Shown here: positions 5,420 through 23,902 of the stretch, piece by piece
Numbering within the stretch: position 1 is the stretch's first letter
Layout of the letters: each line of letters begins with the position of its first letter
Source of the DNA: Nostoc sp. PCC 7120 = FACHB-418
GTDB taxonomy: Bacteria; Cyanobacteriota; Cyanobacteriia; Cyanobacteriales; Nostocaceae
Direction: 5' to 3'
DNA length: 32,000 nucleotides
Assembly: GCF_000009705.1 (NCBI RefSeq)
Contig: NC_003276.1
Location: forward strand, 330,001-362,000
Translations under genes and position numbers: made by a program
Notes under the pieces: generated by a model
What the model was told of the DNA's origin: nothing
The model's database searches: none
Seen by the model: only the letters and a program-made list of their open reading frames with translations

Positions 5420-5428
5420 GAACATCGG

Positions 5429-5462
5429 GAGCCGTGTGCAGCGAAAGTTGCACGCACGGATC
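5429..5462 (+). ncRNA. Group II intron domain V
   Basis: GAGCCGTGTGCAGCGAAAGTTGCACGCACGGATC is 34 nt and has the AGC triad, a GAAA tetraloop and the 2-nt AC bulge. All pairs are canonical except G3 opposite A32, where the consensus is a G-U wobble. Confidence 0.8.
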
Positions 5463-5693
5463 TAACAGAGAGGGACGGGGAATAATATCCCCTCTCGACT
5501 CTAACCTACGGTGAAGATGTGGGATGGCGAATACGCCGTTGGGTTACAACACCTAAAGTCTTACGATTAATCGCCTGCTGAATGTGAGCAGGACTTTGGA
5601 CAAAAAGAAGTCCAAATATGTATCTGCTGGAATGACAATACACGAACTACTTTTCCCTTTTTACGGAATGTTAAAAGTAAGGTCGAATTCACG

Positions 5694-6458
5694 TTAGATA
5701 AGCAGTTTTGTAGACATTTTTTCCAGTTTAATTACTTTAAGTAGATTTTTCCAGTCTTCAGCCACCCCTAAATCCTGGGAACCTGTAAGGAGCAGTTCTG
5801 CTAGCGTTGTCAAAGCATCGTACCAAATACCGTTTTTTGCGTAGATGGAGGCTTGTTCCTGTGGTAACAATTGTTTAAATTCATCACGTAATGCGGCATC
5901 CAAATTCACACGTTGCACCCAGCCTTCTACATAATCCAATGTCGCTGATTGGTTAGGGTTACATACAACTCTAACTTTGAAGAACCAGTGATATGGCTTG
6001 TTAGTTTCTAGGAAAGCCGTAGTCTTTTGTAGTTGCACTCGAACAATTCCAGGTACTGGGGGTACTGAAATATCTGCGCGATGGATTGTTTTATTTTGAT
6101 CGGTTTGTAAAACAAATTCGATCGCCTGAATGGAAGATTGATTATAGGGAACATAGAACCAAAAGCTGGGCTGTTCTACACTAGTTAAGCCCCACACCTG
6201 AGTAATTGTGGTTTCTCCTGCACCCTGATTCAAGCGTTGTTCATAGCTTGGAACAAGAGCGGTTAAAGGCAAATCCAGTGCAGTACAATCTCCTCGTGAG
6301 GCTCCTTCGCCTCGGTTCCCTGGTAAACCGCGATCGGGTGGTGGCGGTGGTGGGTTAAAGCGAATTGGTGCCGATTTTTGGGATAAGGCTGGCGAAGTGC
6401 TAAAACAGTTGATCAAAATTACACTGAATGCAATTAGTGAAGCTAGTCGCTGAAGCAT
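5694..6458 (-). CDS. Secreted DUF928-like protein
   Basis: Signal peptide MLQRLASLIAFSVILINCFSTSPALSQ, then PPPPPPDRGLPGNRGEGASRGDC, LTALVP, PSFWFYVPY and YHWFFKV..VC motifs that I recognise as the cyanobacterial DUF928 family. It lies 104 nt downstream of, and co-oriented with, the CHAT-CHASE2 gene. Confidence 0.7.
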   Translation of the reverse strand: MLQRLASLIAFSVILINCFSTSPALSQKSAPIRFNPPPPPPDRGLPGNRGEGASRGDCTALDLPLTALVPSYEQRLNQGAGETTITQVWGLTSVEQPSFWFYVPYNQSSIQAIEFVLQTDQNKTIHRADISVPPVPGIVRVQLQKTTAFLETNKPYHWFFKVRVVCNPNQSATLDYVEGWVQRVNLDAALRDEFKQLLPQEQASIYAKNGIWYDALTTLAELLLTGSQDLGVAEDWKNLLKVIKLEKMSTKLLI

Positions 6459-6562
6459 AATTTTTAATACTCGCCAAAGGCGAGAAACAAGCTACGTAAT
6501 TTGTAATTAACAAGCGTTTAAAGTCATCTCTATTTTTTAGTAATCACAAAAATATGTGTAGT

Positions 6563-8908
6563 TTACGCAGAGCGGGGAAAATATCTCGTAAAGTAGGCAA
6601 TTAGGATAATACTACTAATGAGGGCGATCGCAGAGGGAATCAGTGGTATCCAAGTGCTGTACTGAATTAAAACAACAAAGCATATTCCGTAGAGGCTGGC
6701 GATCGCGATTGAAGTTACTATTCCTAAATAGAACAATGGCCGAATGTACCAAGCCAGTAAACTCCCTGTTAACGACCATCCCCAAATCCAAATTGTTTCT
6801 TGCCAAACAGACCAAGCCCAGATGAGCGATCGTCCATCGAGGGCTGCACTTAACAATTGACTAATCATTTGCGCTTGCAGAATAACACCTGGTATTTTCT
6901 CGATCGCACCTTGATTTGTGATATTGGGTGTAAATGAGTAATCTTCAAAGCTTTCGGCTGTTGTACCAATCAGAACAATTTTGTTTTTGACTGTATTAGC
7001 ATTTATTTTTCCTGTGAGTACTTCTGTTAACGATACCTGCGGCACAAATTCCTGTAGCGATCGCTCTTTACGATAATTCAACAAAATTTGGTGTCCTGAA
7101 GCATCGATGCCTTGATATCCACTAGTGTGTGCTGTTAGTGGTTTAAAAGCTGTCTTGCCGAGTTTCCAAGCACCATCATTGGTAAATTTTAGAGAAATAT
7201 TGTGAGCAGCCAAGTAACGCAGTGCTACTTGTACGCTGAAAGCATATTGGGCTTTGCAAGGTGAAGAGGGCGGCGGTGTTAATGCTAATAAATGGCGACG
7301 GACAATGTTATCTGAGTCGATTACTAAATCACTAAAGCCTAAGCGTTCTGGTGTTATTTCCGGCGGGGGTTTGATGCCGGGATGCTCAGATTGGGCATCG
7401 CTAACTCGACAGACTGCACTTAGATGTTTACTGTTATATAGATGCTTTGCCAATTCTGGTAACTCTGGCTTAACAGGGCGATCACGGTAAATATCTAATC
7501 CTATTGATTGTGGTTGATATGCCTCTAATTTTTTCAACAATTTCAACAGTGATTCATCTGAGAGAGAACCCTGGGGTTTTTCTTGAGACTGTGATTGCAC
7601 ATCTTCTTCGGTGATCGTCACAACCAACAAGCGAGAATCAGGCTGTTCATCTGGGCGTAGTTGCTGCAAGCGATCGAACGCTTGTAACTCCAATCCTTGC
7701 AGCATTCCTACGTATCTTACACCTATGACAAAAAGGGCGATCGCCAAACTCGCGCAACCAAGCCAAAGAAAATGAGGGACAGACAAACTCTTCCCGTAGG
7801 CCCCTTTGCTCTTTTGCCCCTCCATCTCTTTACCTATCAACTCCTGCCAACTAGCTGGTATCTCTGCGAGATTTTGATAAATCACAGGTAGCCAACTTGC
7901 ACAGGGAAATTGTCCATCCAATCCTTGCAGTCTTTCTCTAGCTTCGCGGACTGCTAGATAAAGCGATTTGCCTCCAGCGTATGCTTGCAAAAAATGCTTG
8001 AGAAATGTTTGCGCCACCCGGTCTGGAACAGGTTCGCGCATGACAATCAACTGGGGAATCTGTAAAGAAGCAAATTCTCGCGCCAGTCCTAAACCATCAC
8101 ATGAATTAAAAATTGCTAACTTTAAACCGCGCTCAACTGCTTGCCTGAGAGCATACTTTAACTGACTAATTGTCAAACTTTCTGTTTGGTTAATGTAGAT
8201 TTGACCTGTTTCTCCTGTACTTTGGCTTGAACTATGTCCAGCAAAAAATAGAATATCCCAATTTTGCTGCCAGAGATTATCTGTTAAGTCTTCACAAGAT
8301 GGTTCTACAAGAAAGTGAATTTTTGTATTAGGCAGTTGTTCTAGAAGTAAACGGTCTGTGCCTATATTGATTCCATGACTATCACCTAATAATGCCAAAA
8401 TTTTCACAGTTGCAGTTGATATTGGGGAAAATTCGACTTTTTCATAAATAGGCGTACTTAAGGCGATTTCTGCATTTGGATAACGTTCTATTAACTCCCA
8501 AAGATGCCAAGGGAGTTTTTGAAGTTGATAGTCTTGAGTTTGCAAGATTACCCGAATTATGTCAGATGTTTGAAGCTTTTCGAGCCATTTTTCGCGGATC
8601 GGGCGGAAAGATTCTGATTGTAACCAATAGTTAAAGCAGTCGCGTAATTGTTGAGCTGCTTCAAGACACTGTTGCTCATTTGCAATTAACAGCTTTTGTT
8701 TTGTTAGCCCTTTAGGACGAGCGGCAAAATCTAAGCTACGATAAATCGATTGCCAACAATTAAAATTTAACGGTAATTCTTTCTCTGGCGGAAGTTCGCC
8801 GATAACTTCACTTTCAGGGCGACTATTTTCTTCTCCAATCTGGAGAGTAACTGGAAACCCAGTCTCAAAGCTCCCTTTGCCAAATTTCAAAACTATCAAT
8901 TTAGTCAC
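6563..8908 (-). CDS. CHAT (caspase-fold) domain fused to a CHASE2 membrane sensor
   Basis: GTG start preceded by GGAG. The N-terminal ~370 aa carry a CHAT His/Cys dyad context (DILFFAGHSS ... LAIFNSCDGLGLA). A TM helix follows near residues 385-405 (HFLWLGCASLAIALFVIGV). Next is a ~300-aa CHASE2-like region (LELQAFDRLQQLRP, LLVVTITEEDV, GLDIYRD, DSDNIVRR). Three C-terminal TM helices close the protein, with no C-terminal output domain. Confidence 0.8.
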   Translation of the reverse strand: MTKLIVLKFGKGSFETGFPVTLQIGEENSRPESEVIGELPPEKELPLNFNCWQSIYRSLDFAARPKGLTKQKLLIANEQQCLEAAQQLRDCFNYWLQSESFRPIREKWLEKLQTSDIIRVILQTQDYQLQKLPWHLWELIERYPNAEIALSTPIYEKVEFSPISTATVKILALLGDSHGINIGTDRLLLEQLPNTKIHFLVEPSCEDLTDNLWQQNWDILFFAGHSSSQSTGETGQIYINQTESLTISQLKYALRQAVERGLKLAIFNSCDGLGLAREFASLQIPQLIVMREPVPDRVAQTFLKHFLQAYAGGKSLYLAVREARERLQGLDGQFPCASWLPVIYQNLAEIPASWQELIGKEMEGQKSKGAYGKSLSVPHFLWLGCASLAIALFVIGVRYVGMLQGLELQAFDRLQQLRPDEQPDSRLLVVTITEEDVQSQSQEKPQGSLSDESLLKLLKKLEAYQPQSIGLDIYRDRPVKPELPELAKHLYNSKHLSAVCRVSDAQSEHPGIKPPPEITPERLGFSDLVIDSDNIVRRHLLALTPPPSSPCKAQYAFSVQVALRYLAAHNISLKFTNDGAWKLGKTAFKPLTAHTSGYQGIDASGHQILLNYRKERSLQEFVPQVSLTEVLTGKINANTVKNKIVLIGTTAESFEDYSFTPNITNQGAIEKIPGVILQAQMISQLLSAALDGRSLIWAWSVWQETIWIWGWSLTGSLLAWYIRPLFYLGIVTSIAIASLYGICFVVLIQYSTWIPLIPSAIALISSIILIAYFTRYFPRSA

Positions 8909-9490
8909 GTCGCTTCACTCCGAATTAAAAATCTCCATTGATAAATTTAGTTGTTCAGTATCCTTTTATTTTGCAGTCAGAATAAAAATTATCTTTCAAC
9001 AATTGTAGATAGACCGTTATTAGATATCATCTACAGTTCTCTTATTTATGCTGTCAATATCGAGATTTTAGTTTGCAAGTTGTTTGAAAAGTGCTGGCTG
9101 ATGTGTCAAAAATTTAGATCCGTCATTATCTTCCTTAAAAAGGAGGACTTTGATTTATTTCCCCCTTTTTTTAAGGCTAGGGAGGATTTAAGATTTTGGA
9201 AACACGCCCTACCTCTGTTTTTGAAGCTACGGCGATGTACACAAGTCCTTTAATGCATTGACCTGCAACTCACGTTATGTTAGGCAATAAGTATAAAAGA
9301 TTAAGGCGTTGCTGAGTATAGAAATATGAATTTGTATCATGCAGAGTCGCAGAGACTAAGAGTTGAGAAGAATTAAATTTTAAATTTCAAATTCAGCAAT
9401 GCCAAAGATAAGTTTGGTCAATTTCAGGAAAATGTCACTCAAGGAGAGTAGTTTAAATTTATTCGCTGTTTATATAAAAATTAAAGTCTC

Positions 9491-10705
9491 ATGCATTTAA
9501 GGCAAAATATTATCGAAATTTTTTCCACCTTTATGCTATTTAAAGGTGATAGTTTTGACCATTGGGTTACTGATTCTAAGCTGCGACGGAGTATGCACAA
9601 TTGTGTAGAAGAGTCTTCTAAGCAAGAGTCAGAAATATTTTGGGCTATTTACTGGCATCGGATTTGGCAAACGCAAGCAAGTCCAATTGCAGTTGCTCAT
9701 ATTGCAGCCTATTTACAGGAAGTTTGTTACTGGGTTGCGAGAAAAATGAAAATGAATGTACTAGGTCAACATTCTGTCGCTGATTTTTTCCAAACAGCGA
9801 TCGCTCGTGTTGATAAAGTTATGAAAGGCTTTAACCCACAATTGGGTTCAAATTTGAAAATCTATGCAGAATACACCTTTAGCAATCTGATTAAAGATTT
9901 GTTACGCAAGCGTCAAGAAGTTGATATCTGTACTGACTGGGGATTGCTGCACAAACTGAGTCAAAAGCGTTTGGTAGAATCTCTCAAACAGGCAGGTTAT
10001 CCATCCCAAATCATTGAGCGTTATGTTCTAGCTTGGAGTTGTTTCTTGCAATTTTATGCGCCCCACGATGTTGCAACTGCTCACAAACTCATTAAACCAG
10101 ATAATTTGACATTACAGGCGATCGCACAACTTTACAACACCGAACGTCTCAGTCAGCTAAGTTCTCCCAGTCCAGCCTGCACTCCAGAAAGTTTGGAAAC
10201 TTGGTTAGTTACTTGTGCTAAAGCAGTGCGTTCCTTTCAATATCCCACCTCAGTTTCTCTGGATATTCCTGCACCTGGACAAGAAACGGGCGAATTACTC
10301 GACCGACTGACGAACAATTTTCAAGACTCGGTGTTAGATGAAATAATTATCCAAGAAGAAGTAGAAAACATTGCGTTGCGGAGTACAGAAATTAATCGAG
10401 TTTTGAGCGATGCGCTGGCAAAATTAGATCCCCAAGCTCAAGTACTTCTGCAAACATACTACAAGCAAGAATTAACCCAGCAGCAAATTGCTCAACAGCT
10501 AGGAATCAAACAATATACAGTTTCTCGGCAACTAACTAAAATCAAAAAGACATTACTAGTAGAGTTAGCCCAGTGGAGTCAAAAAACACTGCATATTCCG
10601 GTGAAATCTGACGTAATCGACAGTATGAGTAATTCTCTAGAAGAATGGTTGATTGCTCAGTATCGCCCTCTCATTTTGTTGTCGCCAGTGGAGTCTTTAA
10701 AATGA
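9491..10705 (+). CDS. Sigma-70 family-like protein (atypical, 404 aa)
   Basis: Region 2-like segment GFNPQLGSNLKIYAEYTFSNLIKDLLRKRQ. C-terminal region 4 helix-turn-helix LLQTYYKQELTQQQIAQQLGIKQYTVSRQLTKIKKTLL. The gene is divergent from the CHAT-CHASE2 gene across 580 bp. Confidence 0.7.
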   Translation: MHLRQNIIEIFSTFMLFKGDSFDHWVTDSKLRRSMHNCVEESSKQESEIFWAIYWHRIWQTQASPIAVAHIAAYLQEVCYWVARKMKMNVLGQHSVADFFQTAIARVDKVMKGFNPQLGSNLKIYAEYTFSNLIKDLLRKRQEVDICTDWGLLHKLSQKRLVESLKQAGYPSQIIERYVLAWSCFLQFYAPHDVATAHKLIKPDNLTLQAIAQLYNTERLSQLSSPSPACTPESLETWLVTCAKAVRSFQYPTSVSLDIPAPGQETGELLDRLTNNFQDSVLDEIIIQEEVENIALRSTEINRVLSDALAKLDPQAQVLLQTYYKQELTQQQIAQQLGIKQYTVSRQLTKIKKTLLVELAQWSQKTLHIPVKSDVIDSMSNSLEEWLIAQYRPLILLSPVESLK

Positions 10706-11853
10706 TTTTTGATGTCACCTCAATTCCTGAACAGCTCACCTTGGAAATTTCGTTATCATCGCAAACCCTAGAATTACAAGGTTTTTCCACATCAGGCGCA
10801 CGCTGGCGAGGTCGTCTTAACCAAATGTGCTTAGATGCATTTTTACTGTGGTTGAGAGAAGAAGTTGAAAATGCCAGAGTTTGGACTCAAACAGCAGCGT
10901 TACCTAGCTTTTGGGAATTTGTAAATGGAACTGCGATCGCTTGTGAAGAGATAAGATTAGTATTGATTCCCACAACGGCAATAGATACAGACGAATTGCG
11001 CGTACCCCAAGAATGGGTAGATATTCCCGATTGGGTTGCTGATTATTATATTGCAGTACAAGTTAATCCTAATGGTGGCTGGGTGACAATTTGCGGATAT
11101 ACCACCCATCGTCAATTGAAAACTAAAGGGGTTTATGATGCAAGCGATCGCGCTTACTGTTTAGATGAAAATGATTTAATTAAAGACATCAATGGTTTGT
11201 GGATTACCCGACAACTTTGTCCAGAGGAAATTTTACGTGAGTCAGTTGCACCTTTACCGACATTACCTTTAGCACAAGCAGAAAACTTACTCGAACGATT
11301 AGGTAATTCTGAAGTAGTCTTTCCGCGTTTAGCAATTCCCTTTGAACTTTGGGGTGCATTATTAACACATGGCGGCTGGCGACAAGGGTTGTACGAACGA
11401 CGACAAGGGCTGCCTGAACAGTGGTCAATTCAGGAATGGTTGCAAGCAGGAGTATCGAATTTAGCACAGCAGCTTGGTTGGGGAATGACTAGATTGCAAT
11501 TAGCTGCTCGTGGTCTGCGAAGCCGAGAAACTGATGAATCAAGTGTCTCTTTGTCCCGGCAGTTGACACTTGCTGGTCAAGCTTACGAGTTGCGCGTATT
11601 TCAAAGAGGTAACTTAGAAGACAATATATGGCGGTTTGAATTACGCAATGCAAATCCAGATGCAATGATTCCAGCAGGATTTAGACTCAGACTGTTAACC
11701 GAAGATTTACAGCCTTTTGTTAATAATGAGGATACAGCAACAGAAGCGATATCTCAGCTTTATATCGATGTAGAGTTGGAGCCAGGAGAGGGTTTAGTAT
11801 GGGAAATTGAGCCAACACCGGATGACTATGATAGAGAAATTTTACGGTTTTGA
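10702..11853 (+). CDS. DUF1822-like protein (cytoplasmic, 383 aa)
   Basis: I chose the ATG at 10702 because it forms an ATGA overlap with the sigma-like stop codon (10703-10705); the longer ORF from 10645 would overlap by 61 nt. There is no signal peptide or TM helix. Motifs such as RVPQEWVDIPDWVADYYIAVQVNP match my recollection of the cyanobacterial DUF1822 family, which usually sits next to a sigma-like gene. Confidence 0.65.
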   Translation: MIFDVTSIPEQLTLEISLSSQTLELQGFSTSGARWRGRLNQMCLDAFLLWLREEVENARVWTQTAALPSFWEFVNGTAIACEEIRLVLIPTTAIDTDELRVPQEWVDIPDWVADYYIAVQVNPNGGWVTICGYTTHRQLKTKGVYDASDRAYCLDENDLIKDINGLWITRQLCPEEILRESVAPLPTLPLAQAENLLERLGNSEVVFPRLAIPFELWGALLTHGGWRQGLYERRQGLPEQWSIQEWLQAGVSNLAQQLGWGMTRLQLAARGLRSRETDESSVSLSRQLTLAGQAYELRVFQRGNLEDNIWRFELRNANPDAMIPAGFRLRLLTEDLQPFVNNEDTATEAISQLYIDVELEPGEGLVWEIEPTPDDYDREILRF

Positions 11854-11993
11854 GTACAAAATTTATTCTGACTTATGATGTCATGTTCGGCTCAATACAA
11901 GTCAATACGGTGTTCAGCCGGGATACTTGCAAGTGCGATTTGTTCTGGAGAAACCCAATACACTTCAAAATGAGCAACAAAACCCTGATGTAG

Positions 11994-12013
11994 AGACGCG
12001 ATTTATCGCGTCT
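11994..12013. repeat. Short palindromic hairpin repeat AGACGCGATTTATCGCGTCT
   Basis: A 9-bp perfect stem with a 2-nt loop, in the convergent gap between the DUF1822 and FHA genes. A second, slightly degenerate copy lies at 15937-15956 (18/20 match) and shares the TGTA flank. Confidence 0.5.
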
Positions 12014-12062
12014 TGAAAGACCAATCATCTACACCAATAACCCTTAACCCAAGCATATTGTT

Positions 12063-14129: not shown

Positions 14130-14274
14130 TGTACTCTCCTAGCATAAAAAGAAACTTTTGCTTGTAATATTTAAATAAATATATAAGTACCAACAAAAAC
14201 TACTACTTATGGATTGTTACTCTTTTACCCCAAACTTATCAGAAAGTGGTGACTAATATTTATTGATTTTGAGC

Positions 14275-14385
14275 TTATGCTTTTACTTTTTCAAAATCCA
14301 AACCACGAATTAGCAAAGCATAATGTCCATCCAGACGTAGAAGCTCTTCATGGGAACCTCGTTCAACTATTGTCCTGCCATGACA
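14275..14385 (-). pseudogene. Remnant of the 3' end of an ABC-transporter ATPase gene
   Basis: The minus strand reads CHGRTIVERGSHEELLRLDGHYALLIRGLDFEKVKA*, which matches the typical ABC ATPase C-terminus (G.IVE.GSHEELL...G.YA.L). An in-frame TGA lies directly upstream and there is no start codon. It sits immediately downstream of the HlyD stop. Confidence 0.5.
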
Positions 14386-14400
14386 TCAAGTCGTATTCGT

Positions 14401-15903: not shown

Positions 15904-15936
15904 AATAAATGGGGATGGGGCAGGGGGGAATTGTAC

Positions 15937-15956
15937 GGACGCAATTTATCGCGTCT
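15937..15956. repeat. Degenerate second copy of the AGACGCGATTTATCGCGTCT hairpin
   Basis: GGACGCAATTTATCGCGTCT matches 11994-12013 at 18/20 positions. It overlaps the last three codons (E-T-R) and the TAA stop of the ABC exporter gene. Confidence 0.4.
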
Positions 15957-18873
15957 CTTGTTGTTGATATAGGCAGTAGTAATAACCTTTACGTGCCATT
16001 AATTCTTCATGAGTGCCTTGTTCTACTACAGCACCTTGTTCCATCATGAGAATGATGTTGGCATGGCGAATTGTGCTGAGGCGATGTGTGATGAAAAATA
16101 CTGTTTTTCCTTGAAATGCTGTTGCCAGATTACGGCCAACTTGGGCTTCGGCGTTGTAGTCTAAGGCGCTGGTGGCTTCATCAAGGATAAGTAATTGGGG
16201 GTTTTGGAGGACGGTACGAGCGATCGCAATTCTTTGGCGTTGTCCCCCAGAAAGCCCCGAACCACGTTCGCCTACACGGGTATTGTAGCCGATTGGCAAG
16301 TCCATAATAAAGTCGTGGGCAAATGCTACCTTTGCGGCGGCAATAATTTCTTCATCACTGGCTTCGGAACTTCCCAAGGCAATGTTTTCCCGCACTGTCC
16401 CGTCAAATAATAAGGTATCTTGTAACACCATTCCAATTTGACGGCGTAAGGAATAAAGTTCAACCTTGGCGATATCATAGCCATCAATCAAGATTTTGCC
16501 AGATTTGGGTTCGTAAAGGCGCGGTAGTAATTTTAGCAATGTACTTTTACCAGAACCGCTTTGTCCAACAATGCCAATAAAAGAGCCAGCCGGGAAATCT
16601 AAGTTAATATTGGAAAGTTGTAATGGCCCGTGTTCCAAGAAGCTGAAACTGAGATTTTCATACCGGACATTACCTTGAATGCTAGGCATGAGAATATTTT
16701 GTGTCTCTGTTTCTGTTTCTTGAGGAGAATCTAAAATTTCAGCAAGGCGTTGCAGAGATAAAGCTGTTTCTTGGAAGTTCTGCCATAGTTGCATTAAGCG
16801 TAATAGTGGACTAGTTACATAACCTGCAAGGATGCGGAAGGCGATGAGTTGTCCTAGAGTGAGTTGTTGATTGAGGACGAGATAAGCACCTACCCACAGC
16901 ACTAACATACTGGAAAACTTGTTAAGAAAGCTGCTAAAAGAACTAGCAGTAGTTTGAGTAGAGACTGTTTTGAAACCAGCGCTGATATAACGAGCATAAC
17001 GTTCTTGCCATTGCCAACGCGATCGCATTTCTAAATTTTGCGCCTTGACTGTCTGCATCCCTCCCATCACTTCTACTAAGTAAGATTGAGTTTCAGCATT
17101 GCGTTCGGCTTTTTCTTGTAATTGTCGCCGCATTAAAGGCGATACTATCAAGTTAAGCAAGCCAAACAAGGGTACTGTTACCAATGCTACTAAGGTGAGA
17201 ATTGGGCTATAAAATGCCATAACCACAATGTAGACTACAGAAAACACTGCATCCATCACCACAGTTAGGGCTGTACCAGTCAAAAAAGAACGGATATTTT
17301 CTAATTCGTGAATGCGCGTTGCCAATTCCCCCACAGGGTGACGCTCAAAATAAGATAATGGCAGACGCAACAAGTGGTTAATTACCTCTGAACCCAGAGA
17401 AAGATCAATGCGGTTAGTGGTATCCACAAATAAATGAGTGCGAACTGTGGTAAGTATGGCTTCAATTACCGCTATTACGAGCAAAAATATCCCAAAAACT
17501 TCCAAAGTATCAGGGCTATTACCAACTAATACTTTATCAATAATTACTTGTGTGACTAAAGGATTTACCAGCCCGAAAATTTGAATGACAATCGAAGCAA
17601 TTAGCACTTCAATAAGTACTTTACGATGGCGTTTGATTGCAGGTACAAACCAACTCAAATTAAACCGCGACTTGGGAGTATTTTTAGTAGTTTGCAGGAG
17701 CAAAACTTCTCCTTCTTGTCCCCAGTTTTCAGCAAAGTCTTGCAATTTGTAGCGCAACAGCCCCATCTCTGGAACAGCAACAAGTAACTCTTGATTGCTA
17801 TTTTTGTAAATAATTGCAAAACTATCTTGCCAAGCAATCATTATTGGTAATTGCAAGCGACTAAGCGCAACGGCGGGAACTTTCACCATTTGCGTTGTTA
17901 ATCCCATTAATTCTGCGGCGGCTGCACAAAATTGTAGAGATATACTACCTTTGTGTTCCTGTTGCTTTGTCAGAACTCGCCGCAATACATCTCGACGCAA
18001 GGGGATATTAAAGTACTGACTCAACATGACAAAGCAAGCTAAAGTACCATCTAACGGGCCTCTACCTCGACAATAAGGATACTTCTTTTGTTTAACTTGG
18101 GTGCTTGATTCCTCTGTAATGGTAATTTCGGAAGCGTAGGGAATCTCTGTGGGTAAAAGTGTTGTAGATGTGGGATTTTCTCCAAATAAAGACTTCGGTA
18201 ACCCCACTACACGCATATTTGTATTAAATTTCAACGTGGGATTAACATCATCTAATTCTAGGCGACTTCCTACAGAAAATTCTGGATTAAAATTACTACT
18301 GACTAACCATAATAATTCTGAATCTAATTGGTTGTGAGATATTTTACGTGCGGGGAATGTTTGAATAACAGCTGCTTCCGTTGCAGCTTGAGCAAGTTTA
18401 ACTAAATTTTTGCTCCCATCTGCGCGACGGTTGAGTTCTTCTGTGAGCAGTTCGTATACTTCTAAAAGTGTAATCTGCTGATGCAAGGCTTGAGTAAAAG
18501 CTGACTCTTGCTTGAGTAATGCTTGAAAATCAGCAATGGGTAGATTAATCGTGATAACTTCAGTAGAAGCGATCGCGGTTTCACAAGCAATCCCCCGCAC
18601 ATAACTTAACCAACCCAAAACCTCACCTGGTGAAAGCAGCTTAAGTGTCACAGGATTCGGTTTGTGAGCATTATAGCCTAACAGTCGAGCTTGCCCTTCA
18701 TAGATAATACTAATTTGAGCAGGCATAGCTTCTTGAGTCACTATCACCTGTCCAATACGGTAGCGTAAAAATTTCGCCTTACTGAGCCAACTTTCTAAAA
18801 TACTTTCTGGCAAGTTATTGAATGGAAACAAGTTTGCAATTAATTCTTGAAGATTTACTGTTGTATTTGTCAT
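15946..18873 (-). CDS. ABC exporter with an N-terminal cyclic-nucleotide-binding-like domain and a C39-peptidase-like domain (bacteriocin/T1SS type)
   Basis: Residues ~20-130 are CAP/cNMP-like (IGQVIVTQEAMPAQISIIYEGQARLL...LSPGEVLGW). A C39-like domain follows (YCRGRGPLDGTLACFVMLSQYFNIPL...PIMIAWQDSFAIIY). There are six TM helices. The NBD has Walker A GQSGSGKST, signature LSGGQRQRIA and Walker B LLILDEATSALD. Confidence 0.9.
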   Translation of the reverse strand: MTNTTVNLQELIANLFPFNNLPESILESWLSKAKFLRYRIGQVIVTQEAMPAQISIIYEGQARLLGYNAHKPNPVTLKLLSPGEVLGWLSYVRGIACETAIASTEVITINLPIADFQALLKQESAFTQALHQQITLLEVYELLTEELNRRADGSKNLVKLAQAATEAAVIQTFPARKISHNQLDSELLWLVSSNFNPEFSVGSRLELDDVNPTLKFNTNMRVVGLPKSLFGENPTSTTLLPTEIPYASEITITEESSTQVKQKKYPYCRGRGPLDGTLACFVMLSQYFNIPLRRDVLRRVLTKQQEHKGSISLQFCAAAAELMGLTTQMVKVPAVALSRLQLPIMIAWQDSFAIIYKNSNQELLVAVPEMGLLRYKLQDFAENWGQEGEVLLLQTTKNTPKSRFNLSWFVPAIKRHRKVLIEVLIASIVIQIFGLVNPLVTQVIIDKVLVGNSPDTLEVFGIFLLVIAVIEAILTTVRTHLFVDTTNRIDLSLGSEVINHLLRLPLSYFERHPVGELATRIHELENIRSFLTGTALTVVMDAVFSVVYIVVMAFYSPILTLVALVTVPLFGLLNLIVSPLMRRQLQEKAERNAETQSYLVEVMGGMQTVKAQNLEMRSRWQWQERYARYISAGFKTVSTQTTASSFSSFLNKFSSMLVLWVGAYLVLNQQLTLGQLIAFRILAGYVTSPLLRLMQLWQNFQETALSLQRLAEILDSPQETETETQNILMPSIQGNVRYENLSFSFLEHGPLQLSNINLDFPAGSFIGIVGQSGSGKSTLLKLLPRLYEPKSGKILIDGYDIAKVELYSLRRQIGMVLQDTLLFDGTVRENIALGSSEASDEEIIAAAKVAFAHDFIMDLPIGYNTRVGERGSGLSGGQRQRIAIARTVLQNPQLLILDEATSALDYNAEAQVGRNLATAFQGKTVFFITHRLSTIRHANIILMMEQGAVVEQGTHEELMARKGYYYCLYQQQETR

Positions 18874-18935
18874 CTCTTACTTTGCATCTTTTGCAGTTAG
18901 TTTCTTTACTATTCCAAATTCTATTTGACAGACTA

Positions 18936-19727
18936 CTAAGCCATTTCTTGCACCTGGTCAGATTTAGGATTAATTCCCATCCAGATTTTCTCTTCTGGCG
19001 ACAATTGATTTAATTGTTGTTGAAACCAATCTTCAAAATTTTCTTGCAGCAATCTTTGGCGCATAAAATCGTCTAACTGGGCAGGAATTAGTTTTTCTAC
19101 ACGCACAATTACCCATGTATTTCCAAAAGCTACGGGTGGTTGAACAACACCAACTTGGCTTGTGTAAAGTAGTTGAGCAAAATTCGGAGTAATACTACCA
19201 AGTTCTACTGGGCCAATAATGCCGCCTCTATCAGCTTCTGCACCTTGAGAATATTTTCGCGCCAGTTCAGCAAAAGAATCTTCTCCTTCTGCTATTCTGA
19301 AGAATAACTCATTGACAACGCTCTTATTTTCAGTTTGAATTAAAGAATAAATAACTCGATCTAAATATTTTTTGCGTTTAAGAAAGTAAGATTCTAGCTG
19401 ATGTCTCCAATTTATTTGTTTGAACTTTTCTACTCTCAGCTTTCGGGTTGCTAAAAGTTTTAATTTTTCCGCATTCAAACCATAACGTAAGCACCAATCT
19501 TTGATTTTTTCTGCGGTTGTCAAATCCCAATGCTGATAAAATTGATCTAGAGCATGAGATATTTCTGCTTGTGTGCAGGTGATTGGTGCAATAGCAGATT
19601 CGATTATCCTCTGTGATAACAATTGCGGAATCAGGTTGTAACTAGCTAAAAAAGGGATAATTTCTTTAGGTATATTGGCATAATCTAACTCAGGTATTGC
19701 GCTGCTTATTTGTAAAACTTTACTCAT
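18936..19727 (-). CDS. Parvulin-type peptidyl-prolyl cis-trans isomerase (PrsA/SurA-like)
   Basis: C-terminal rotamase domain: FAELARKYSQGAEADRGGIIGPVELGSITPNFAQLLYTSQVGVVQPPVAFGNTWVIVRVEK. The gene ends 62 nt upstream of, and is co-oriented with, the ABC exporter gene. Confidence 0.8.
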   Translation of the reverse strand: MSKVLQISSAIPELDYANIPKEIIPFLASYNLIPQLLSQRIIESAIAPITCTQAEISHALDQFYQHWDLTTAEKIKDWCLRYGLNAEKLKLLATRKLRVEKFKQINWRHQLESYFLKRKKYLDRVIYSLIQTENKSVVNELFFRIAEGEDSFAELARKYSQGAEADRGGIIGPVELGSITPNFAQLLYTSQVGVVQPPVAFGNTWVIVRVEKLIPAQLDDFMRQRLLQENFEDWFQQQLNQLSPEEKIWMGINPKSDQVQEMA

Positions 19728-19770
19728 ATTTGTAGAAATATTTAATCCGTGTAGTTATAAAATTTAGAAA

Positions 19771-19956
19771 TGCAAGCGGCAAAGTTCAGGTAGAGTTCTG
19801 TACCGCTTGCAACATTTGCATACAGCGCTTCCGGCTATTATGCAATACAGTTTTTCTCCTGACCCGCTCCTATCAAAGCTTTCAGAGTTGAGGATGTACC
19901 TCATAGCTGCCGGAAGTGCTGTAATCTTGAAAGCATTGCTGTGCAATGCTTTCAAG
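19771..19956. other. Highly structured intergenic element (three stems) between the PPC-repeat gene and the PPIase gene
   Basis: Stem 1 is TGCAAGCGG / CCGCTTGCA (19771-19779 / 19803-19811). Stem 2 is GCGCTTCCGGC / GCCGGAAGTGC (19825-19835 / 19909-19919), 11 bp with one mismatch. Stem 3 is a perfect 14-bp hairpin CTTGAAAGCATTGC-TGT-GCAATGCTTTCAAG (19926-19956). Confidence 0.45.
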
Positions 19957-19971
19957 TACCACTTACCAGTA

Positions 19972-20712
19972 TTAAGCAAATGGGGTGGTGAAGTGGTCAA
20001 AAGTCAAAGTGTAGCCAGTCCGTCCACTGAATTGATTGACTTGCAAGAAGTAGTCACCTGATTGGTTAATGTTAGAAATTATATCCGGCGTGATACCACC
20101 TTTAGTAGAACGTGCAATTTCCTCATTTGCATCAACAATCCGATTGTTATTAAAATCCCGAATCAATCGAATGTCAGCATCACCATTTAGGAGTCCGTTC
20201 AGTGTAATGTTGACACCCTCAAAATCCCCCAGGGAGAACTGGTAAGTATCTGCGGTGTCGAAGTCACCCACAATATTAGAGCGACTAACATCACCTGACA
20301 AGTTGCCAAGTTCAAATTCTCTAGGCAAAAGATTACTAAAACCAGATGTTGAATTGGGTGCAGTCGCAGACACAGCAAAATCGTAACTTATAGTGCCTGA
20401 ACTAGCAGCACCGCGAATGACTTGGGCAAAATAAGTCCCTGCATTTTCCTGATTATTGATAGACTCGTCTCTGTTGCTAGACCTAGCGGACAAATCAACC
20501 GATTGGTCATTGGCATCAAAAATCCCGTTACCGTTGTCTCGAAAAAGTAACAGTTCGGGATCACCAACGCTGATATCTGTCACAGACAAATTGAGATTTC
20601 TGGTACTGGTGGTTCTAAACTTAAAAACATCAGTGGTATCAGATGTAGTTAAAGTGAAGTTGTTTCTGAGAACAGGCGTGCTGCCTATTGTACCAAGATC
20701 AAAAGTAGCCAT
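19972..20712 (-). CDS. Tandem PPC (pre-peptidase C-terminal)-like domain protein without a signal peptide
   Basis: Two ~110-aa repeats have the PPC pattern: DTTDVFKFRT...DPELLLFRDNGNGIFDANDQ...AGTYFAQV...YDFAV and DTADTYQFSL...DADIRLIRDFNNNRIVDANEE...GDYFLQVNQ...YTLTF. The N-terminus MATFDLGTIG has no hydrophobic leader. Confidence 0.6.
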   Translation of the reverse strand: MATFDLGTIGSTPVLRNNFTLTTSDTTDVFKFRTTSTRNLNLSVTDISVGDPELLLFRDNGNGIFDANDQSVDLSARSSNRDESINNQENAGTYFAQVIRGAASSGTISYDFAVSATAPNSTSGFSNLLPREFELGNLSGDVSRSNIVGDFDTADTYQFSLGDFEGVNITLNGLLNGDADIRLIRDFNNNRIVDANEEIARSTKGGITPDIISNINQSGDYFLQVNQFSGRTGYTLTFDHFTTPFA

Positions 20713-21071
20713 TTTTTCCTTTAGTTAGAGTTTTGATAGTAATGTAGTCAAGTTAAGAGCAGCAGATGTAATTTTTTGTCTGGATTACAGCACAAAATCA
20801 CCTGCAATTTAATTTCAGAATTTGAGAACGCAACAAGTAAGGTGAAGACTGTTTAGTATGAGTTTTTGGGAACTCATATTATCCTCAGCAATTAGTTGTC
20901 ACACTTATCCATACGTGGGATATTTAGGTCTATGCAAAATTCAGCAAAAAAATTGCTGAATTAGTCAAAAGTCTATTGAGAGCATCACAATGTCCGCATT
21001 GATTCAGAAGTCAGCAGGCTTGTTCTCAATAAAGGTAAACAGCAGTTAACTAGCTAAAGTGAAAGAGTAGA

Positions 21072-23678
21072 ATGTCGAACGCCTTCCCTTTATTTCGGTA
21101 TCTCCTGCTATTACTAATCACAGCATTTATTTTTGTTACCGTTTCACCTGTCTTAAAACCATCTCATGCAGTTGATTTGCCAATTGAGCATTTTGATAGA
21201 TCAGAAAAACGCTTAAAAGATTCACTACAACAAGGAAAAGCACTATATGAAGCAGGAAGATTAGTAGAAGCGCAACAGCTTTTGCAGAAGGTCTTTCAAG
21301 AATACCAAGCATTGGGAGATAAGCTTAGACAAGCGGTGACGCTAAGTAATCTTGCCTTGGTTTATCAGCAGCGTGGGATGTTTACCGAAGCAAATACGGC
21401 AATCAATGACAGTTTGCAACTGCTAGGTACTCAGAACTCAAAACAATACTTGCACGTTCTTGCTCAAACGCTGGAAATTAAAGGGAGTATACAGTTAGAG
21501 CAAGGACAAGCTCAACAGGCATTACAAACTTGGCAATTAGCTGAGGCGGAATATATTGCAAGTAGTGATGTCTACGACGAGCTACACCAACGCACTGCCA
21601 TCAACCACAGTCGCATTAATCAAGCACAGGCATTGCAGGTACTAGGATTCTACCGTCGTGCTTTAACAATGTTGACTCAAGTCAGCCAAAATTTACAATC
21701 TCAACCAGATTCGTTAACCAAAGTTATAGAATTGCGATCGCTGGGAGATGTACTCCAATTAACTGGAGATTTAAAAAAATCTAGTGAAGTTTTACAACAA
21801 AGCTTACAAACTGCTGAGAAATTGCAATCCCTTCGGGAGATCGCTGCAACATTCCTCAGTTTAGGCAATACTGCTAGAATTGCGGAAGATTATGAAAGTG
21901 CGATCGCTTTTTATCAACAAGCGATCGCGAAAACTCCTTCATCTCTTACCAAAGTCCAGGCGCAAATCAATCTTTTGACTATCCTAGTCAATACACAACA
22001 GTGGAAAATTGCACAACCTCTGTTAAAGCAAATTCCTACTGAGCTAGATAATTTACCACTCTCTCAAGTAGCAGTTTATGCCAGAATTCATTTTGCTCAG
22101 AGCTTGATGAAACAGCAATTTATCAATGAGTCAAAAGAATCTGCGGCTAAAATGCTCGCCAAAACAACAAAACTAGCACAAGCACTTGGTGATAGACGAG
22201 CAGAATCTTACGCCCTTGGAACTCTGGGAAAGCTGTATGAACAGGACAAACAGTGGTTAAATGCCCAAAATTTGACACAGCAAGCACTTAAGTTAGCTGA
22301 ATCTGTAAATGCACCGGATATCGCCTACAACTGGCATTGGCAGCTAGGACGCTTGTTAAAACAGCAGGGAGATACCAAAGGTGCGATCGCAGCTTATGAT
22401 GATGCTGTTAATGAGTTACAGGCTCTTAGAAATGACCTTGTTGGAGTTAATCGAGATGTAGAATTTTCATTTAAGGAAAGTGTAGAACCTATTTATCGTG
22501 AATCAGTAGCATTACTTTTATCGCCAGGAGATCAAAGTGAACAAACATTAGATAAAGCACGCCAGCGAATTGAAGCACTTCAATTAGCAGATTTAGATAA
22601 CTTTTTTCGGGAAGCTTGCTTAAATGTCACAAAGGTTGTGTTAGATGAAGTAGTAGATAGAGATAATCCTACAACCGCCGTTATTTATCCAATTATTCTG
22701 CCAGAAAAATTACAAGTCATTGTCAAAATTCCCAAGCAACCTTTGCGACGCTACTCAGTAAATAAATCTCAAATTGAAGTAGAAAAAACTTTAGGTCAAC
22801 TGCGGCAGTATTTGACTGAACCAGACAGAATCGAGGAAGTTAAAATACTTTCTCTGCAAGTATATAGTTGGTTGATTCAACCAATCGAGTCTGAGTTACA
22901 ACATAGGAATGTTAATACTTTAGTTTTTGTATTGGATGGTGCATTGCGAAATGTACCAATGGCAGCATTATATGATGGAAGACAATATTTAGTTGAGAAA
23001 TATGCTGTTGCTTTAAATCTGGGATTGCAATTACAAAAACCCAAACCTTTAGCACAAGAAAATTTACAGATTCTTGCTGGAGGATTGGTACAACCGCCAT
23101 CCCAATTTCGACAATTTCCGCCTTTACCAGAAATTAAATCTGAGTTTAACTTGATTGCCAAAGCAGGGGTAGTAACCACAGAACTTTTAGATCGAGATTT
23201 CACAAGTAAGGCATTAACAGGAAAGATTAGCTCTATTCCATTTAATGTTGTTCATCTGGCAACTCACGGACAGTTTAGTTCTCGTCCTGAAGATACATTT
23301 ATTTTGGCGATGGATGGGCCAATTAATGTTACTGATTTTGATTTGCTGTTACGCCGTCGTGATGAAACATACTTACAACCTTTAGAACTTCTTGTCTTAA
23401 GTGCTTGTCAGACAGCAGAAGGCGATAATCGGGCAACACTGGGTTTAGCAGGGGTTGCTGTGCGTGCAGGTGCAAGGAGTACAATGGCAAGTCTATGGAA
23501 TGTTGGTGATCGCTCCACTGCAATTTTAGTAGGTGAGTTTTATCGTGAGTTAGTTTCTGCCAAAGTTACAAAAGCAGAAGCTCTGCGTCGCGCTCAAGTA
23601 ACCCTTTTACAAAAGTATCCAAACTACAGCCGCCCAGGGTATTGGGCTGCTTATGTTCTCGTTGGTAACTGGTTGTAA
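21072..23678 (+). CDS. TPR-repeat CHAT-domain protein with an N-terminal signal peptide or anchor
   Basis: N-terminus MSNAFPLFRYLLLLLITAFIFVTVSPVLKPSHA/VD. About 450 aa of TPR-like repeats (e.g. ALYEAGRLVEAQQLLQKV, LSNLALVYQQRGMFTEA, AIAFYQQAI, AIAAYDDAV). C-terminal CHAT domain with the His context VVHLATHGQFS and the Cys context LLVLSACQTAEGD. Confidence 0.85.
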   Translation: MSNAFPLFRYLLLLLITAFIFVTVSPVLKPSHAVDLPIEHFDRSEKRLKDSLQQGKALYEAGRLVEAQQLLQKVFQEYQALGDKLRQAVTLSNLALVYQQRGMFTEANTAINDSLQLLGTQNSKQYLHVLAQTLEIKGSIQLEQGQAQQALQTWQLAEAEYIASSDVYDELHQRTAINHSRINQAQALQVLGFYRRALTMLTQVSQNLQSQPDSLTKVIELRSLGDVLQLTGDLKKSSEVLQQSLQTAEKLQSLREIAATFLSLGNTARIAEDYESAIAFYQQAIAKTPSSLTKVQAQINLLTILVNTQQWKIAQPLLKQIPTELDNLPLSQVAVYARIHFAQSLMKQQFINESKESAAKMLAKTTKLAQALGDRRAESYALGTLGKLYEQDKQWLNAQNLTQQALKLAESVNAPDIAYNWHWQLGRLLKQQGDTKGAIAAYDDAVNELQALRNDLVGVNRDVEFSFKESVEPIYRESVALLLSPGDQSEQTLDKARQRIEALQLADLDNFFREACLNVTKVVLDEVVDRDNPTTAVIYPIILPEKLQVIVKIPKQPLRRYSVNKSQIEVEKTLGQLRQYLTEPDRIEEVKILSLQVYSWLIQPIESELQHRNVNTLVFVLDGALRNVPMAALYDGRQYLVEKYAVALNLGLQLQKPKPLAQENLQILAGGLVQPPSQFRQFPPLPEIKSEFNLIAKAGVVTTELLDRDFTSKALTGKISSIPFNVVHLATHGQFSSRPEDTFILAMDGPINVTDFDLLLRRRDETYLQPLELLVLSACQTAEGDNRATLGLAGVAVRAGARSTMASLWNVGDRSTAILVGEFYRELVSAKVTKAEALRRAQVTLLQKYPNYSRPGYWAAYVLVGNWL

Positions 23679-23902
23679 GTAAATGGCATACTGTTTTCAC
23701 CTGTTCCACAAATCAGATATGACTAGCTTACCCTGAAATTGTGGTCGATAATAAAGGTGGCTGCTGAGGTATGGTGAGTCATATGAAAGTTCAGTTAGAG
23801 ACTATTTATAAAGTAAATCTTAAGCAGACTTTTCCCCTTAAGTCTGGAAACATGGATATAGTAAGGGTTTAAGTCCACAAGTATATTACCAATAAAAGAC
23901 GT

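Follow-up and report, generated by a model that had tools for sequence, protein, structure and literature searches.

The stretch of DNA considered here, hereafter the window, comprises 32,000 nucleotides of contig NC_003276.1 of Nostoc sp. PCC 7120 (positions 330,001 to 362,000) and carries, between its positions 5694 and 23678, ten genes that bring together two CHAT proteases, a sigma factor resembling those of the extracytoplasmic function (ECF) group, a protein with a two-partner secretion (TPS) domain and a type I secretion cassette (Table 1). Genes were called from a list of open reading frames (ORFs) and their translations and were searched with Pfam and NCBIfam profiles, while topology was predicted by a hydropathy scan. 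All ten genes were found at the coordinates and with the domains that an initial annotation of this DNA had assigned to them. The same annotation had described the block as an 18-kb supercluster. The block is no indivisible unit, since an RTX gene takes the place of positions 14376-21060 in the species nearest to this one; it is modular and yet more than an accidental neighbourhood. It is probably a composite of three modules, recurrently linked and co-regulated, on a plasmid of ~408 kb of the PCC 7120 lineage.

Table 1. Coordinates of the features in the window: the ten genes of the block, the copies of the promoter-like motif and the elements of the left flank.
Feature	Positions	Strand	Evidence and remarks
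DUF928 protein	5694-6458	-	Pfam 191 bits; signal peptide
CHAT-CHASE2 membrane protein	6563-8908	-	Pfam CHAT 58 bits (residues 196-332), CHASE2 219 bits
Sigma-70/ECF-superfamily (ECF-like) sigma factor, 404 aa	9491-10705	+	Pfam regions 2 and 4; TIGR02937 140 bits
DUF1822 protein	10702-11853	+	Pfam 423 bits
TPS-domain protein	12063-14129	-	Pfam TPS PF05860 255 bits; TIGR01901 89 bits; Sec signal peptide
HlyD-type membrane fusion protein	14401-15903	-	TIGR01843 227 bits, cutoff 208.7
ABC exporter with cyclic-nucleotide (cNMP)-binding and C39-like domains	15946-18873	-	TIGR01846 (HlyB subfamily) 767 bits, cutoff 725.6
PpiC/NifM-like peptidyl-prolyl isomerase (PPIase) without signal peptide	18936-19727	-	Pfam Rotamase; hydropathy
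PPC protein, two PPC domains, no hydrophobic segment	19972-20712	-	Pfam; hydropathy
TPR-CHAT protein	21072-23678	+	Pfam CHAT 195 bits and TPRs; hydrophobic segment at residues 10-28
Motif TGCATA-N15-CGTATGGATAAGTGTGACA	20897..20936	-	~190 nt upstream of PPC; on the strand of PPC, PPIase, ABC, HlyD and TPS
Relaxed motif copy TGCATT-N13-CGTTAT	9254..9277	+	214 nt upstream of sigma; spacing 2 nt shorter; significance uncertain
Relaxed motif copy TGCATA-N16-CGTAA	10590-10616	+	within the sigma gene, close to its 3' terminus and ~90 nt ahead of the DUF1822 start
RTX C-terminus of a giant protein	52..1593	+	Pfam HemolysinCabind, 13 copies
Intact ISL3 element	1872-3309	+	transposase domains; 33-nt inverted repeats
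3' part of a group II intron	4192..5505	+	Pfam RVT_N, RVT_1, GIIM and HNH over two ORFs; Rfam RF00029

The compartments to which the initial annotation had assigned the ten products agree with those predicted from the domain searches, the translations and the hydropathy scan. Cleavable-looking signal peptides are present on the DUF928 and TPS proteins, and hydrophobic segments are absent from the sigma factor, DUF1822, the PPIase and the PPC protein, so that the description of this last product as leaderless stands. In the CHAT-CHASE2 protein, hydrophobic segments at residues 379-397 and 730-771 enclose the CHASE2 domain and leave the CHAT domain before the first of them; the predicted order is a cytoplasmic N-terminal region with CHAT, a transmembrane segment, a periplasmic CHASE2 domain and C-terminal transmembrane segments. 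The second protease, TPR-CHAT, does possess the N-terminal signal or anchor segment that had been proposed for it and is predicted to be periplasmic. In translation, each of the two CHAT domains has an intact His/Cys dyad. That the compartments so predicted form a working relay is an inference.

The first module is formed by the sigma-DUF1822 gene pair and by the CHAT-CHASE2 and DUF928 genes. The triad of a caspase or CHAT protease, a sigma factor and DUF1822 has already been published. Specifically, Kaur, Iyer, Burroughs and Aravind (eLife 2021, PMC8195603) described proteins with a constant EACC2-caspase part and variable C-termini, CHASE2 among them, encoded beside an ECF sigma factor and DUF1822, and proposed that stimulus-induced protease activation feeds into transcription. 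Their supplement lists an 'EACC2+CASPASE+CHASE2+TM+TM' protein beside DUF1822, which would be the architecture of the CHAT-CHASE2 protein of the window, annotates the DUF1822 family as 'TRADD-N+TPRs', and contains the order DUF1822 > caspase-CHASE2 > 'TM+beta_rich' > TPR-caspase; one row places Haemagg_act genes beside a TPR-caspase with a signal peptide, an extended neighbourhood that is confined to a small number of supplementary rows and is left undiscussed in the text of the paper. The window shares with the EACC2-caspase neighbourhoods an N-terminal region joined to a caspase fold, a variable C-terminal sensor, the adjacent ECF sigma factor and DUF1822, and the occurrence in cyanobacteria of multicellular habit. 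To these it adds DUF928, the TPS protein, a second protease of the TPR-CHAT type, a type I cassette with its cargo and a candidate promoter motif. In the searchable literature, no indexed paper ties DUF928, TPS and CHAT together in cyanobacteria.

The catalytic dyad of the CHAT-CHASE2 protein is read from its translation as His224/Cys271, within the motifs FFAGHSS and FNSCDG, and ~190 residues lie N-terminal to its CHAT domain; a model for EACC2 is absent from Pfam, NCBIfam and PADLOC. Where the window has CHASE2, the C-terminal part in relatives is a C14 caspase or of yet another type, and the C14 caspase of Rippkaea PCC 8801 has no detectable kinship to CHAT-CHASE2. A common descent of the two CHAT proteins of the window, recognisable at the BLASTP level, was considered and discarded, no similarity being detectable between them outside the Pfam domain. 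As for the sigma factor, its regions 2 and 4 are set apart by a long insert, and its stop codon is overlapped by the start codon of DUF1822 in the sequence ATGA, through which DUF1822 is predicted to be translationally coupled to it. The DUF1822 protein is a candidate for an adaptor, an anti-sigma-like partner or a protease substrate. Its AlphaFold2 model (pLDDT 85.5) contains an alpha+beta N-domain, a short helical linker and a C-terminal beta-sandwich, and a Foldseek comparison of it with the PDB gave nothing at E<1e-3, nor any TRADD structure in the top 50. The DUF928 protein starts with its signal peptide, continues with a conserved disordered segment, PPPPPDRGxPGxRxGxxSRGxC, and ends with an Ig-like beta-sandwich and a helical bundle; the Pro/Arg/Gly-rich motif just past the signal peptide is invariant in an alignment of 53 homologues. 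The model is again confident (pLDDT 80.5) and again without a structural match in the PDB at E<1e-3, and function could thus be read from the fold for neither DUF928 nor DUF1822.

The second module pairs the TPS-domain protein, predicted to be a Sec-exported beta-helix protein, with the predicted-periplasmic TPR-CHAT protease. The TPS protein is built of a signal peptide, with an N-terminus ending ...SLA|QI, a variable middle that is 24-50% identical among relatives, versus 70-90% for the neighbouring genes, and a C-terminal module of ~130 residues that is strongly conserved over 68 homologues (INTPDxDPxxGLVELP…C…FxxTGRGGLPxxP…IVEAxGWV…SC). In 62 of 87 TPS ORFs this module carries the motif TGRGG, which is not seen outside the TPS family. 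In the protease, the dyad motifs HLATHG and LSACQT are intact, and in the canonical order its gene follows directly downstream of the TPS gene in many genera. With the two-partner secretion systems FhaB/FhaC and ShlA/ShlB the locus has in common an N-terminal TPS domain after a Sec signal peptide, and the processing of the C-terminal prodomain of FhaB-like proteins offers an analogy for the TPS/TPR-CHAT pair; it differs from them by the lack of an adjacent TpsB gene, by the protease gene of the CHAT family that takes the place of a partner, and by a conserved C-terminal module that is not a toxin. TpsB was found neither in the window, nor in nine annotated plasmid relatives, nor in the commonest neighbour clusters of 60 TPS loci, which are the clusters that were scanned. 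The label TpsA-like, given to this protein initially, is borne out by its TPS domain and signal peptide.

The coupling of these two modules was followed across genomes by a scan anchored on the TPS gene, which took one genome per species, yielded 60 loci and recorded the families present within 10 kb by tblastn and ORF clustering. TPR-CHAT was near TPS in 31 of the 60 loci, CHAT-CHASE2 in 23, DUF928 in 19, DUF1822 in 14 and the sigma factor in 11, and contexts anchored on DUF1822, drawn from plasmids and metagenome contigs, agree with this picture. Three or more of the six families (DUF928, CHAT-CHASE2, sigma, DUF1822, TPS and TPR-CHAT) come together in 41 loci, in at least ten gene orders and at least nine genera (Nostoc, Anabaena, Scytonema, Iningainema, Stigonema, Brasilonema, Dulcicalothrix, Fischerella and Iphinoe); in other words, the genes are not scattered in other genomes without recurrent linkage, as they might have proved to be. 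Two sub-orders recur, namely sigma > DUF1822 > CHAT-CHASE2 > DUF928, and TPS > TPR-CHAT with DUF928 convergent, and DUF928 adjoins CHAT-CHASE2 or TPR-CHAT in 25 of its 28 occurrences. Moreover, the three envelope genes (TPS, TPR-CHAT and DUF928) track the periplasmic CHASE2 sensor. In DUF1822-anchored loci whose flanks extend over at least 8 kb, one or more of the three lay near 13 of the 16 that have a protease of the CHASE2 type and near 1 of the 16 that do not (Fisher p = 3.9e-5, a value uncorrected for shared ancestry), the C14 caspase of Rippkaea PCC 8801 being an example of the latter. The recurrent coupling of the published core to DUF928, TPS and a periplasmic TPR-CHAT protease is therefore well supported and essentially undescribed, and a functional link between modules 1 and 2 is very likely. 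Two further families were seen in such neighbourhoods. Proteins of ~115 aa with a beta/gamma-crystallin domain are encoded by three tandem genes between a short ABC/HlyD pair and TPS (L040, L041 and L051, ~6.4-9.8 kb), in otherwise typical clusters, and are possibly another exported cargo family. A protein of ~315 aa without a Pfam match (ORF cluster 7) lies near TPS/TPR-CHAT in 8 loci, L015 (15528-16490) among them, and has no homologue in the window.

The third module, PPC-PPIase-ABC-HlyD, is facultative. The initial annotation had called the operon similar to a type I secretion system (T1SS), and both the HlyB-subfamily model and the HlyD-family model indeed score above their cutoffs. By sequence, the closest solved structure of the ABC protein in the PDB is E. 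coli HlyB (586 bits). In an alignment with PCAT1, Cys21 corresponds to Gly276 and His99 to a serine, that is, both catalytic residues are lost; what is annotated as a C39 "peptidase" is thus, like its counterpart in HlyB, a C39-like domain without catalytic function, and the exporter resembles HlyB rather than a bacteriocin-processing transporter. We predict with high confidence that it belongs to a non-proteolytic type I system of the HlyB type. In common with E. coli HlyB/HlyD, the locus has an ABC protein of the HlyB subfamily, a C39-like domain without the catalytic Cys and His, an adjacent HlyD gene and an RTX gene nearby, while it differs in the extra N-terminal cNMP-binding domain, in a cytoplasmic PPIase as the first gene and in a candidate PPC cargo without RTX repeats and in the absence of TolC and HlyC from the window. 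The exporter cassette, which consistently opens with the PPIase gene, is conserved in five of five plasmid paralogues and in six of six orthologues examined, and the PPIase itself would be cytoplasmic, given the lack of a signal peptide in the hydropathy scan.

Exporters of this gene order have been met before. Clusters classed as 'group I', with a rotamase, a CAP_ED-C39-ABC protein and HlyD, were reported from nearly all cyanobacteria by Wang et al. (2011, PMC3140520), who found few precursors beside them and classed them as bacteriocin clusters; their order, SurA, long ABC, HlyD, is that of the cassette in the window. HetC of Nostoc PCC 7120 has the same architecture, with an active peptidase and a nucleotide-binding domain that binds ppGpp in vitro (PMC10986499), and thus contrasts in its active C39 domain with the dead one of the window exporter. 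Owing to this inactivity, the cargo is probably a folded-domain protein, of the PPC or RTX kind, and not a leader-cleaved peptide.

The PPC protein is acidic (pI 4.25), has no signal peptide, is free of cysteine in 104 of 105 homologues, contains no RTX repeats and ends in a conserved C-terminus, LTFDHFTT. Substrates of type I secretion are typically acidic, Cys-free and devoid of a signal peptide, and these features make it rather likely that PPC is the cargo of the HlyB/HlyD-type system. Its reading as a peptide with a double-glycine leader was rejected, the N-terminus MATFDLGTIGS being too short and the C39 domain inactive. The giant RTX protein whose C-terminal part is encoded at the left end of the window is a further candidate type I substrate.

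With regard to the relationship between the cassette and the other two modules, contexts anchored on PPC, whose homologues of ~250 aa are common in Nostoc, are the most telling. The PPC gene lies directly upstream of the PPIase gene in 9 of 10 such contexts, hence the view of the cassette as one of four genes, and 8 of the 10 fall within 10 kb of module 1 or module 2 genes, in three classes of arrangement, represented by the window with FACHB-280 and CHAB 5844, by Calothrix FI2-JRJ7 and by Leptolyngbya FACHB-541. In Nostoc FACHB-280 and CHAB 5844, the genes TPR-CHAT > RTX > PPC (> PPC) > PPIase > ABC > HlyD > TPS are co-directional and are followed by DUF1822; in Nostoc JACJTK01, DUF1822, sigma and CHAT-CHASE2 come immediately next to the cassette. 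In Calothrix FI2-JRJ7, sigma and DUF1822 are divergent from a series that runs CHAT-CHASE2 > DUF928 > TPR-CHAT > TPS > two unrelated genes > PPC > PPIase > ABC > HlyD > RTX > TPS. In Leptolyngbya FACHB-541, at 41-54% identity, TPR-CHAT is accompanied by DUF928, CHAT-CHASE2 and DUF1822 on the opposite strand and by RTX > PPC > PPIase up to the end of the contig. These contexts overturned the interpretation of the exporter as a one-off insertion, which had been drawn from the count of 0 orthologues in 60 TPS loci and from DNA alignments to L015, L018 and L016. Two of four homologues picked blind to their context were linked, and, given one to few modules per genome of ~8 Mb, we estimate the probability of chance adjacency at well below 5%. 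The exporter with PPC is a facultative third arm, which recurs beside the core in several arrangements and can be lost or live alone.

An independent hint that links the N-domain of DUF1822 to this type of exporter comes from plasmid pLBX of Leptolyngbya boryana (L081, 6480-12459), where PPIase-ABC-HlyD is followed by a protein of 181 aa that corresponds to the N-terminal half of DUF1822 (139 bits). The same neighbourhoods accommodate alternatives to the cassette, such as the short ABC/HlyD pair with its three beta/gamma-crystallin genes, a set of LanM, Nif11 precursor and PCAT in ATCC 53789, and a giant PPC/clostripain/RTX protein in TCL26-01. As a separate observation, the paralogous cassette on Acaryochloris marina pREB1 (L120, 1-13541) forms a textbook RTX operon, with two HlyC-like acyltransferases, RTX and PPIase-ABC-HlyD, and a large CHAT-domain protein is encoded 8 kb upstream of it.

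Motif discovery, which the initial annotation had suggested for the divergent intergenic regions, brought to light a shared bipartite motif, TGCATA-N15-CGTAT. In its strict form the motif has a single copy in the window (20911-20936, minus strand), 199 nt upstream of PPC, versus 0.05 copies expected by chance, and an alignment of PPC upstream regions contains two conserved blocks around a variable spacer (TTGCATAGAC, N, CGCACGTATGGATA(A/G)GTGTGACA). In relatives, and in the same orientation throughout, it precedes PPC (L085, L123, L125, L127 and L132), RTX genes (L015, L018 and L125), the short ABC gene (L084), TPS (L088/L132) and a pentapeptide gene (L132). It also precedes CHAT-CHASE2 in L084, L085, L086 and L088, at 135-157 nt and with the same 15-nt spacing (CTGCATAAAAAATGAAGATACTCGTATATAG); variants stand upstream of sigma (L109) and near the sigma/DUF1822 junction (L104 and L106), and strict copies recur in the distant loci L104, L106, L108 and L109. 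A scan of related loci totalling 1.98 Mb gave 26 strict matches, many of them orthologous copies, versus a mean of 3.5 (maximum 7) in shuffled sequence. The stand-alone cassettes L126 and L128 are devoid of the motif.

Promoters read by ECF-type sigma factors are characterised by a -10 element containing CGT and a spacer of ~16 nt, as in the TGAAAC-N16-CGTA promoters of B. subtilis sigma-W. In its form the motif of the window looks ECF-like, and its position upstream of RTX, TPS, ABC and CHAT-CHASE2 genes in relatives suggests one regulon. The sigma factor encoded in the cluster is a natural candidate for reading the TGCATA-N15-CGTAT promoters, those of the exporter arm included, and we give this proposal slightly less than an even chance. 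Of the two relaxed copies in the window, the one close to DUF1822 is found at the same place in L083, L087, L104 and L106, and may be either an internal promoter or a consequence of coding constraint from the conserved LHI.V.S.V peptide. The other lies in the intergenic region between sigma and CHAT-CHASE2, which is rearranged in the window relative to its relatives and holds only this copy with a 13-nt spacer. Early leads from footprinting and k-mer counts upstream of sigma, TPS and TPR-CHAT were weak and play no part in the conclusions; they comprise GATAAGTTTGG, which precedes both sigma and TPS in the window, TGCATAAGTTGATTG, located near -75 relative to TPS genes, and GGAGAGT, which is similar to a ribosome-binding site. 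Independently of these, a palindromic repeat of 25 nt, TGTAGAGACGCGATTTATCGCGTCT, occurs in copies 88% identical at 11989-12013, in the DUF1822/TPS gap, and at 15932-15956, in the HlyD/ABC gap, and is probably a dispersed hairpin or terminator-like element.

Taken together, the best explanation of the block is a recurrently linked and probably co-regulated composite of three modules, to which, as a whole, we assign an even chance of being correct. According to this explanation, CHASE2 would sense something in the periplasm, and the cytoplasmic CHAT domain of the same protein would act on the sigma/DUF1822 pair, leading to release or activation of the ECF-like sigma factor. DUF928, putatively co-transcribed and secreted, would be a periplasmic partner of CHASE2, of TPR-CHAT or of both, and the periplasmic TPR-CHAT protease would most likely process the C-terminus of the TPS protein or DUF928. 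The HlyB/HlyD system, with its nucleotide-binding regulatory domain and a dead C39 domain that may serve in docking, would export PPC, as well as small RTX proteins in relatives; transcription of the cargo and exporter genes, and in relatives also of TPS and CHAT-CHASE2, would most likely be driven through the motif by the sigma factor of the cluster. Each specific pairing of a protease with a substrate is, taken singly, doubtful. A more daring and improbable version would join these steps into a two-compartment, caspase-like cascade, in which TPR-CHAT acts on a surface or secreted TPS protein and on DUF928, CHASE2 reads the product, the second CHAT domain activates the sigma factor through DUF1822, and the promoters with the motif drive the nucleotide-gated T1SS, its PPC and RTX cargo, TPS and the sensor itself. 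If true, this cascade would be a self-reinforcing loop, with sensing at the cell surface and secretion as the response.

A precedent for the proteolytic release of a sigma factor is given by Craspase, the type III-E system made up of TPR-CHAT/Csx29, Csx30 and RpoE, which has in common with the window a CHAT protease linked by a partner protein to an ECF-type sigma factor. The window differs in that there is no CRISPR effector and the trigger would be the periplasmic CHASE2 domain, and no homology is detectable beyond the domain level. Specifically, the sigma factor of the window scores 29 bits with the NCBIfam model of the III-E sigma factor, far below its cutoff of 100, and gRAMP/Cas7-11 and a CRISPR array are absent from the window, where the only Cas match of PADLOC was an 18-bit HTH and the only Rfam match was the intron.

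A number of observations weigh against the three-module composite. With N. flagelliforme FACHB-838, Nostoc DedQUE02 and DedQUE12a, the window shares DNA homology only over 5693-14375 and 21061-23686: the intervening 6.7 kb (HlyD, ABC, PPIase and PPC) give way to an RTX gene of 718-740 aa in FACHB-838 and DedQUE02, and module 3 is absent in DedQUE12a. It is decayed or lost in at least five close relatives; ABC and HlyD are deleted in Nostoc S4 and in L085, where modules 1 and 2 stay, L085 keeping a HlyD remnant and PPC, L084 retaining a HlyD remnant with an unrelated short C39-ABC/HlyD pair, and L015 a 41-aa remnant of the ABC C-terminus. The orthologous cassette stands alone in Nostoc DSM 114167 and Scytonema NIES-4073, and the five paralogous plasmid cassettes (~60% identical), which keep the three genes and adjoin a very large secreted or RTX-type protein, are in no case next to a sigma/DUF1822 module. 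Most of the linked cases share ancestry, and retained synteny inflates the linkage counts. The window also contains no TpsB and no ORF for an outer-membrane factor of the TolC type. Such factors are usually encoded elsewhere, and their absence nearby does not exclude function. As to co-regulation, no strict motif stands upstream of sigma or CHAT-CHASE2 in the window, the motif was found neither in L124 and L129 nor in those distant clusters that were scanned for it (L020, L048, L054, L064, L075, L077-L080, L100 and L103), and it could be read by another factor or be a dispersed repeat. Finally, sigma and DUF1822 are each interrupted by elements of the IS200/IS605 type (TnpB) in AP018217.1 (L012, 1580-6968), and CHAT-CHASE2 is split into ORFs of 155 and 614 aa in RSCN01000058.1 (L014, 7550-9896), so that the system is accessory and dispensable in culture. 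The module appears to be decaying in some laboratory or collection strains.

Several of these points would be expected if only the six-gene core were a functional unit and PPC-PPIase-ABC-HlyD an autonomous exporter that entered the space between TPS and TPR-CHAT a single time, in the ancestor of one Nostoc clade, and was kept there by inherited synteny and plasmid co-transfer. The cassette has after all the make-up of the 'group I' clusters that Wang et al. (2011, PMC3140520) reported from almost all cyanobacteria, it is found alone in L126, L128 and all five paralogous plasmid contexts, it has repeatedly been lost or has decayed while the core persists, and the slot between TPS and TPR-CHAT also takes unrelated exporters, as the short C39-ABC of L084 and the LanM/PCAT pair of ATCC 53789 testify. 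However, the linkage recurs in other arrangements, in Calothrix FI2-JRJ7 and, at 41-54% identity, in Leptolyngbya FACHB-541; the L. boryana cassette adjoins a short DUF1822 protein; and the motif precedes cargo genes and CHAT-CHASE2 in relatives and is absent from stand-alone cassettes. We therefore regard this explanation as serious and yet somewhat unlikely.

A different function for the whole block, namely a conflict, immunity or programmed-cell-death system along the lines of Kaur et al. (PMC8195603), would have the proteases triggered by an invader or by damage, with TPS, RTX and PPC proteins as effectors or kin-recognition determinants. The core does match the EACC2-caspase/TRADD-N class that these authors assigned to apoptosis and immunity networks, and its plasmid-borne, accessory location, the hypervariable TPS middle, the frequent damage by insertion sequences (IS) and the high turnover would be in keeping with such a role. 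This is nevertheless quite unlikely, as the PADLOC models give only generic ABC and TPR matches, there is no recognisable toxin or nuclease effector domain, and the TPS C-terminus is conserved, unlike the tip of a polymorphic toxin. Lastly, a cluster for the maturation and export of bacteriocins or other ribosomally synthesised and modified peptides, in which the ABC protein would cleave double-glycine leaders and the CHAT and sigma genes would be bystanders, could be supposed from the Pfam Peptidase_C39 match (45 bits), from the classification of such gene organisation by Wang et al. (PMC3140520) and from the active peptidase of the similarly built HetC (PMC10986499), but is extremely improbable in view of the Cys to Gly and His to Ser replacements, of the score above the HlyB-subfamily cutoff with HlyB as the best structural relative by sequence, and of the lack in the block of short precursor ORFs with a double-glycine leader, for which the PPC N-terminus is too short.

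Around the three-module composite, the flanks present a mixed picture. Exact copies of the TPR-CHAT and DUF928 proteins are contained in 174 and 251 public assembly blocks, respectively, including CP183474.1 (407,634 bp) and AP018217.1 (391,340 bp). On the left, only the ISL3 element and the intron lie between the DUF928 gene and the giant RTX gene, whose full version in L009-L011 (14866-20765) encodes an adhesin-like protein of ~5,300 aa with Calx-beta, Laminin_G_3, CARDB and RTX domains. The reverse transcriptase/maturase of the intron is frameshifted (4192-4587 and 4484-5419), and domain V/VI is located at 5427-5505 (Rfam 59.6 bits). Both elements are present in all same-species contigs and missing from the homologous boundary in other species, and are therefore secondary insertions; the initial annotation thus identified the parts of its left bracket correctly, but these inserted beside the giant RTX gene and do not delimit a mobile unit. 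On the right, the proposed G+C-rich island is real in composition, with a G+C content of 0.47 at 23.5-24.5 kb versus ~0.38-0.43 inside the block. It is weak evidence of foreign DNA, since the peak corresponds to a cupin gene conserved in all same-species contigs and the RTX and intron regions are equally G+C-rich. No direct or inverted repeats of at least 25 nt bracket 5.4-24.2 kb.

Beyond the block, an acid-phosphatase (HAD IIIB) gene at 27175-29806 is broken up by an IS66/MULE-like transposase gene (27737-29317), which leaves ORFs of 185 and 169 aa, and related strains have different DNA at this region. A TnpB/OrfB_IS605 gene (Cas12f-like TNB) is located at 30060-31295, with a second copy just past the window in L001.

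The reading of this block as a modular, facultative unit is thus largely supported. CHAT and caspase-like proteases are abundant in filamentous cyanobacteria, and almost none of them has a known substrate or output. The locus described here, in the genetically tractable PCC 7120 lineage, places a dedicated sigma factor, a set of defined secreted proteins and a candidate promoter beside two CHAT proteases, and consequently the protease-to-sigma prediction of Kaur et al. becomes directly testable. In addition, the analysis points to TPS-domain proteins that would operate without an adjacent TpsB, and the cassette classed so far as 'bacteriocin group I' may be reclassified as a HlyB-like protein exporter with PPC as its candidate cargo family.

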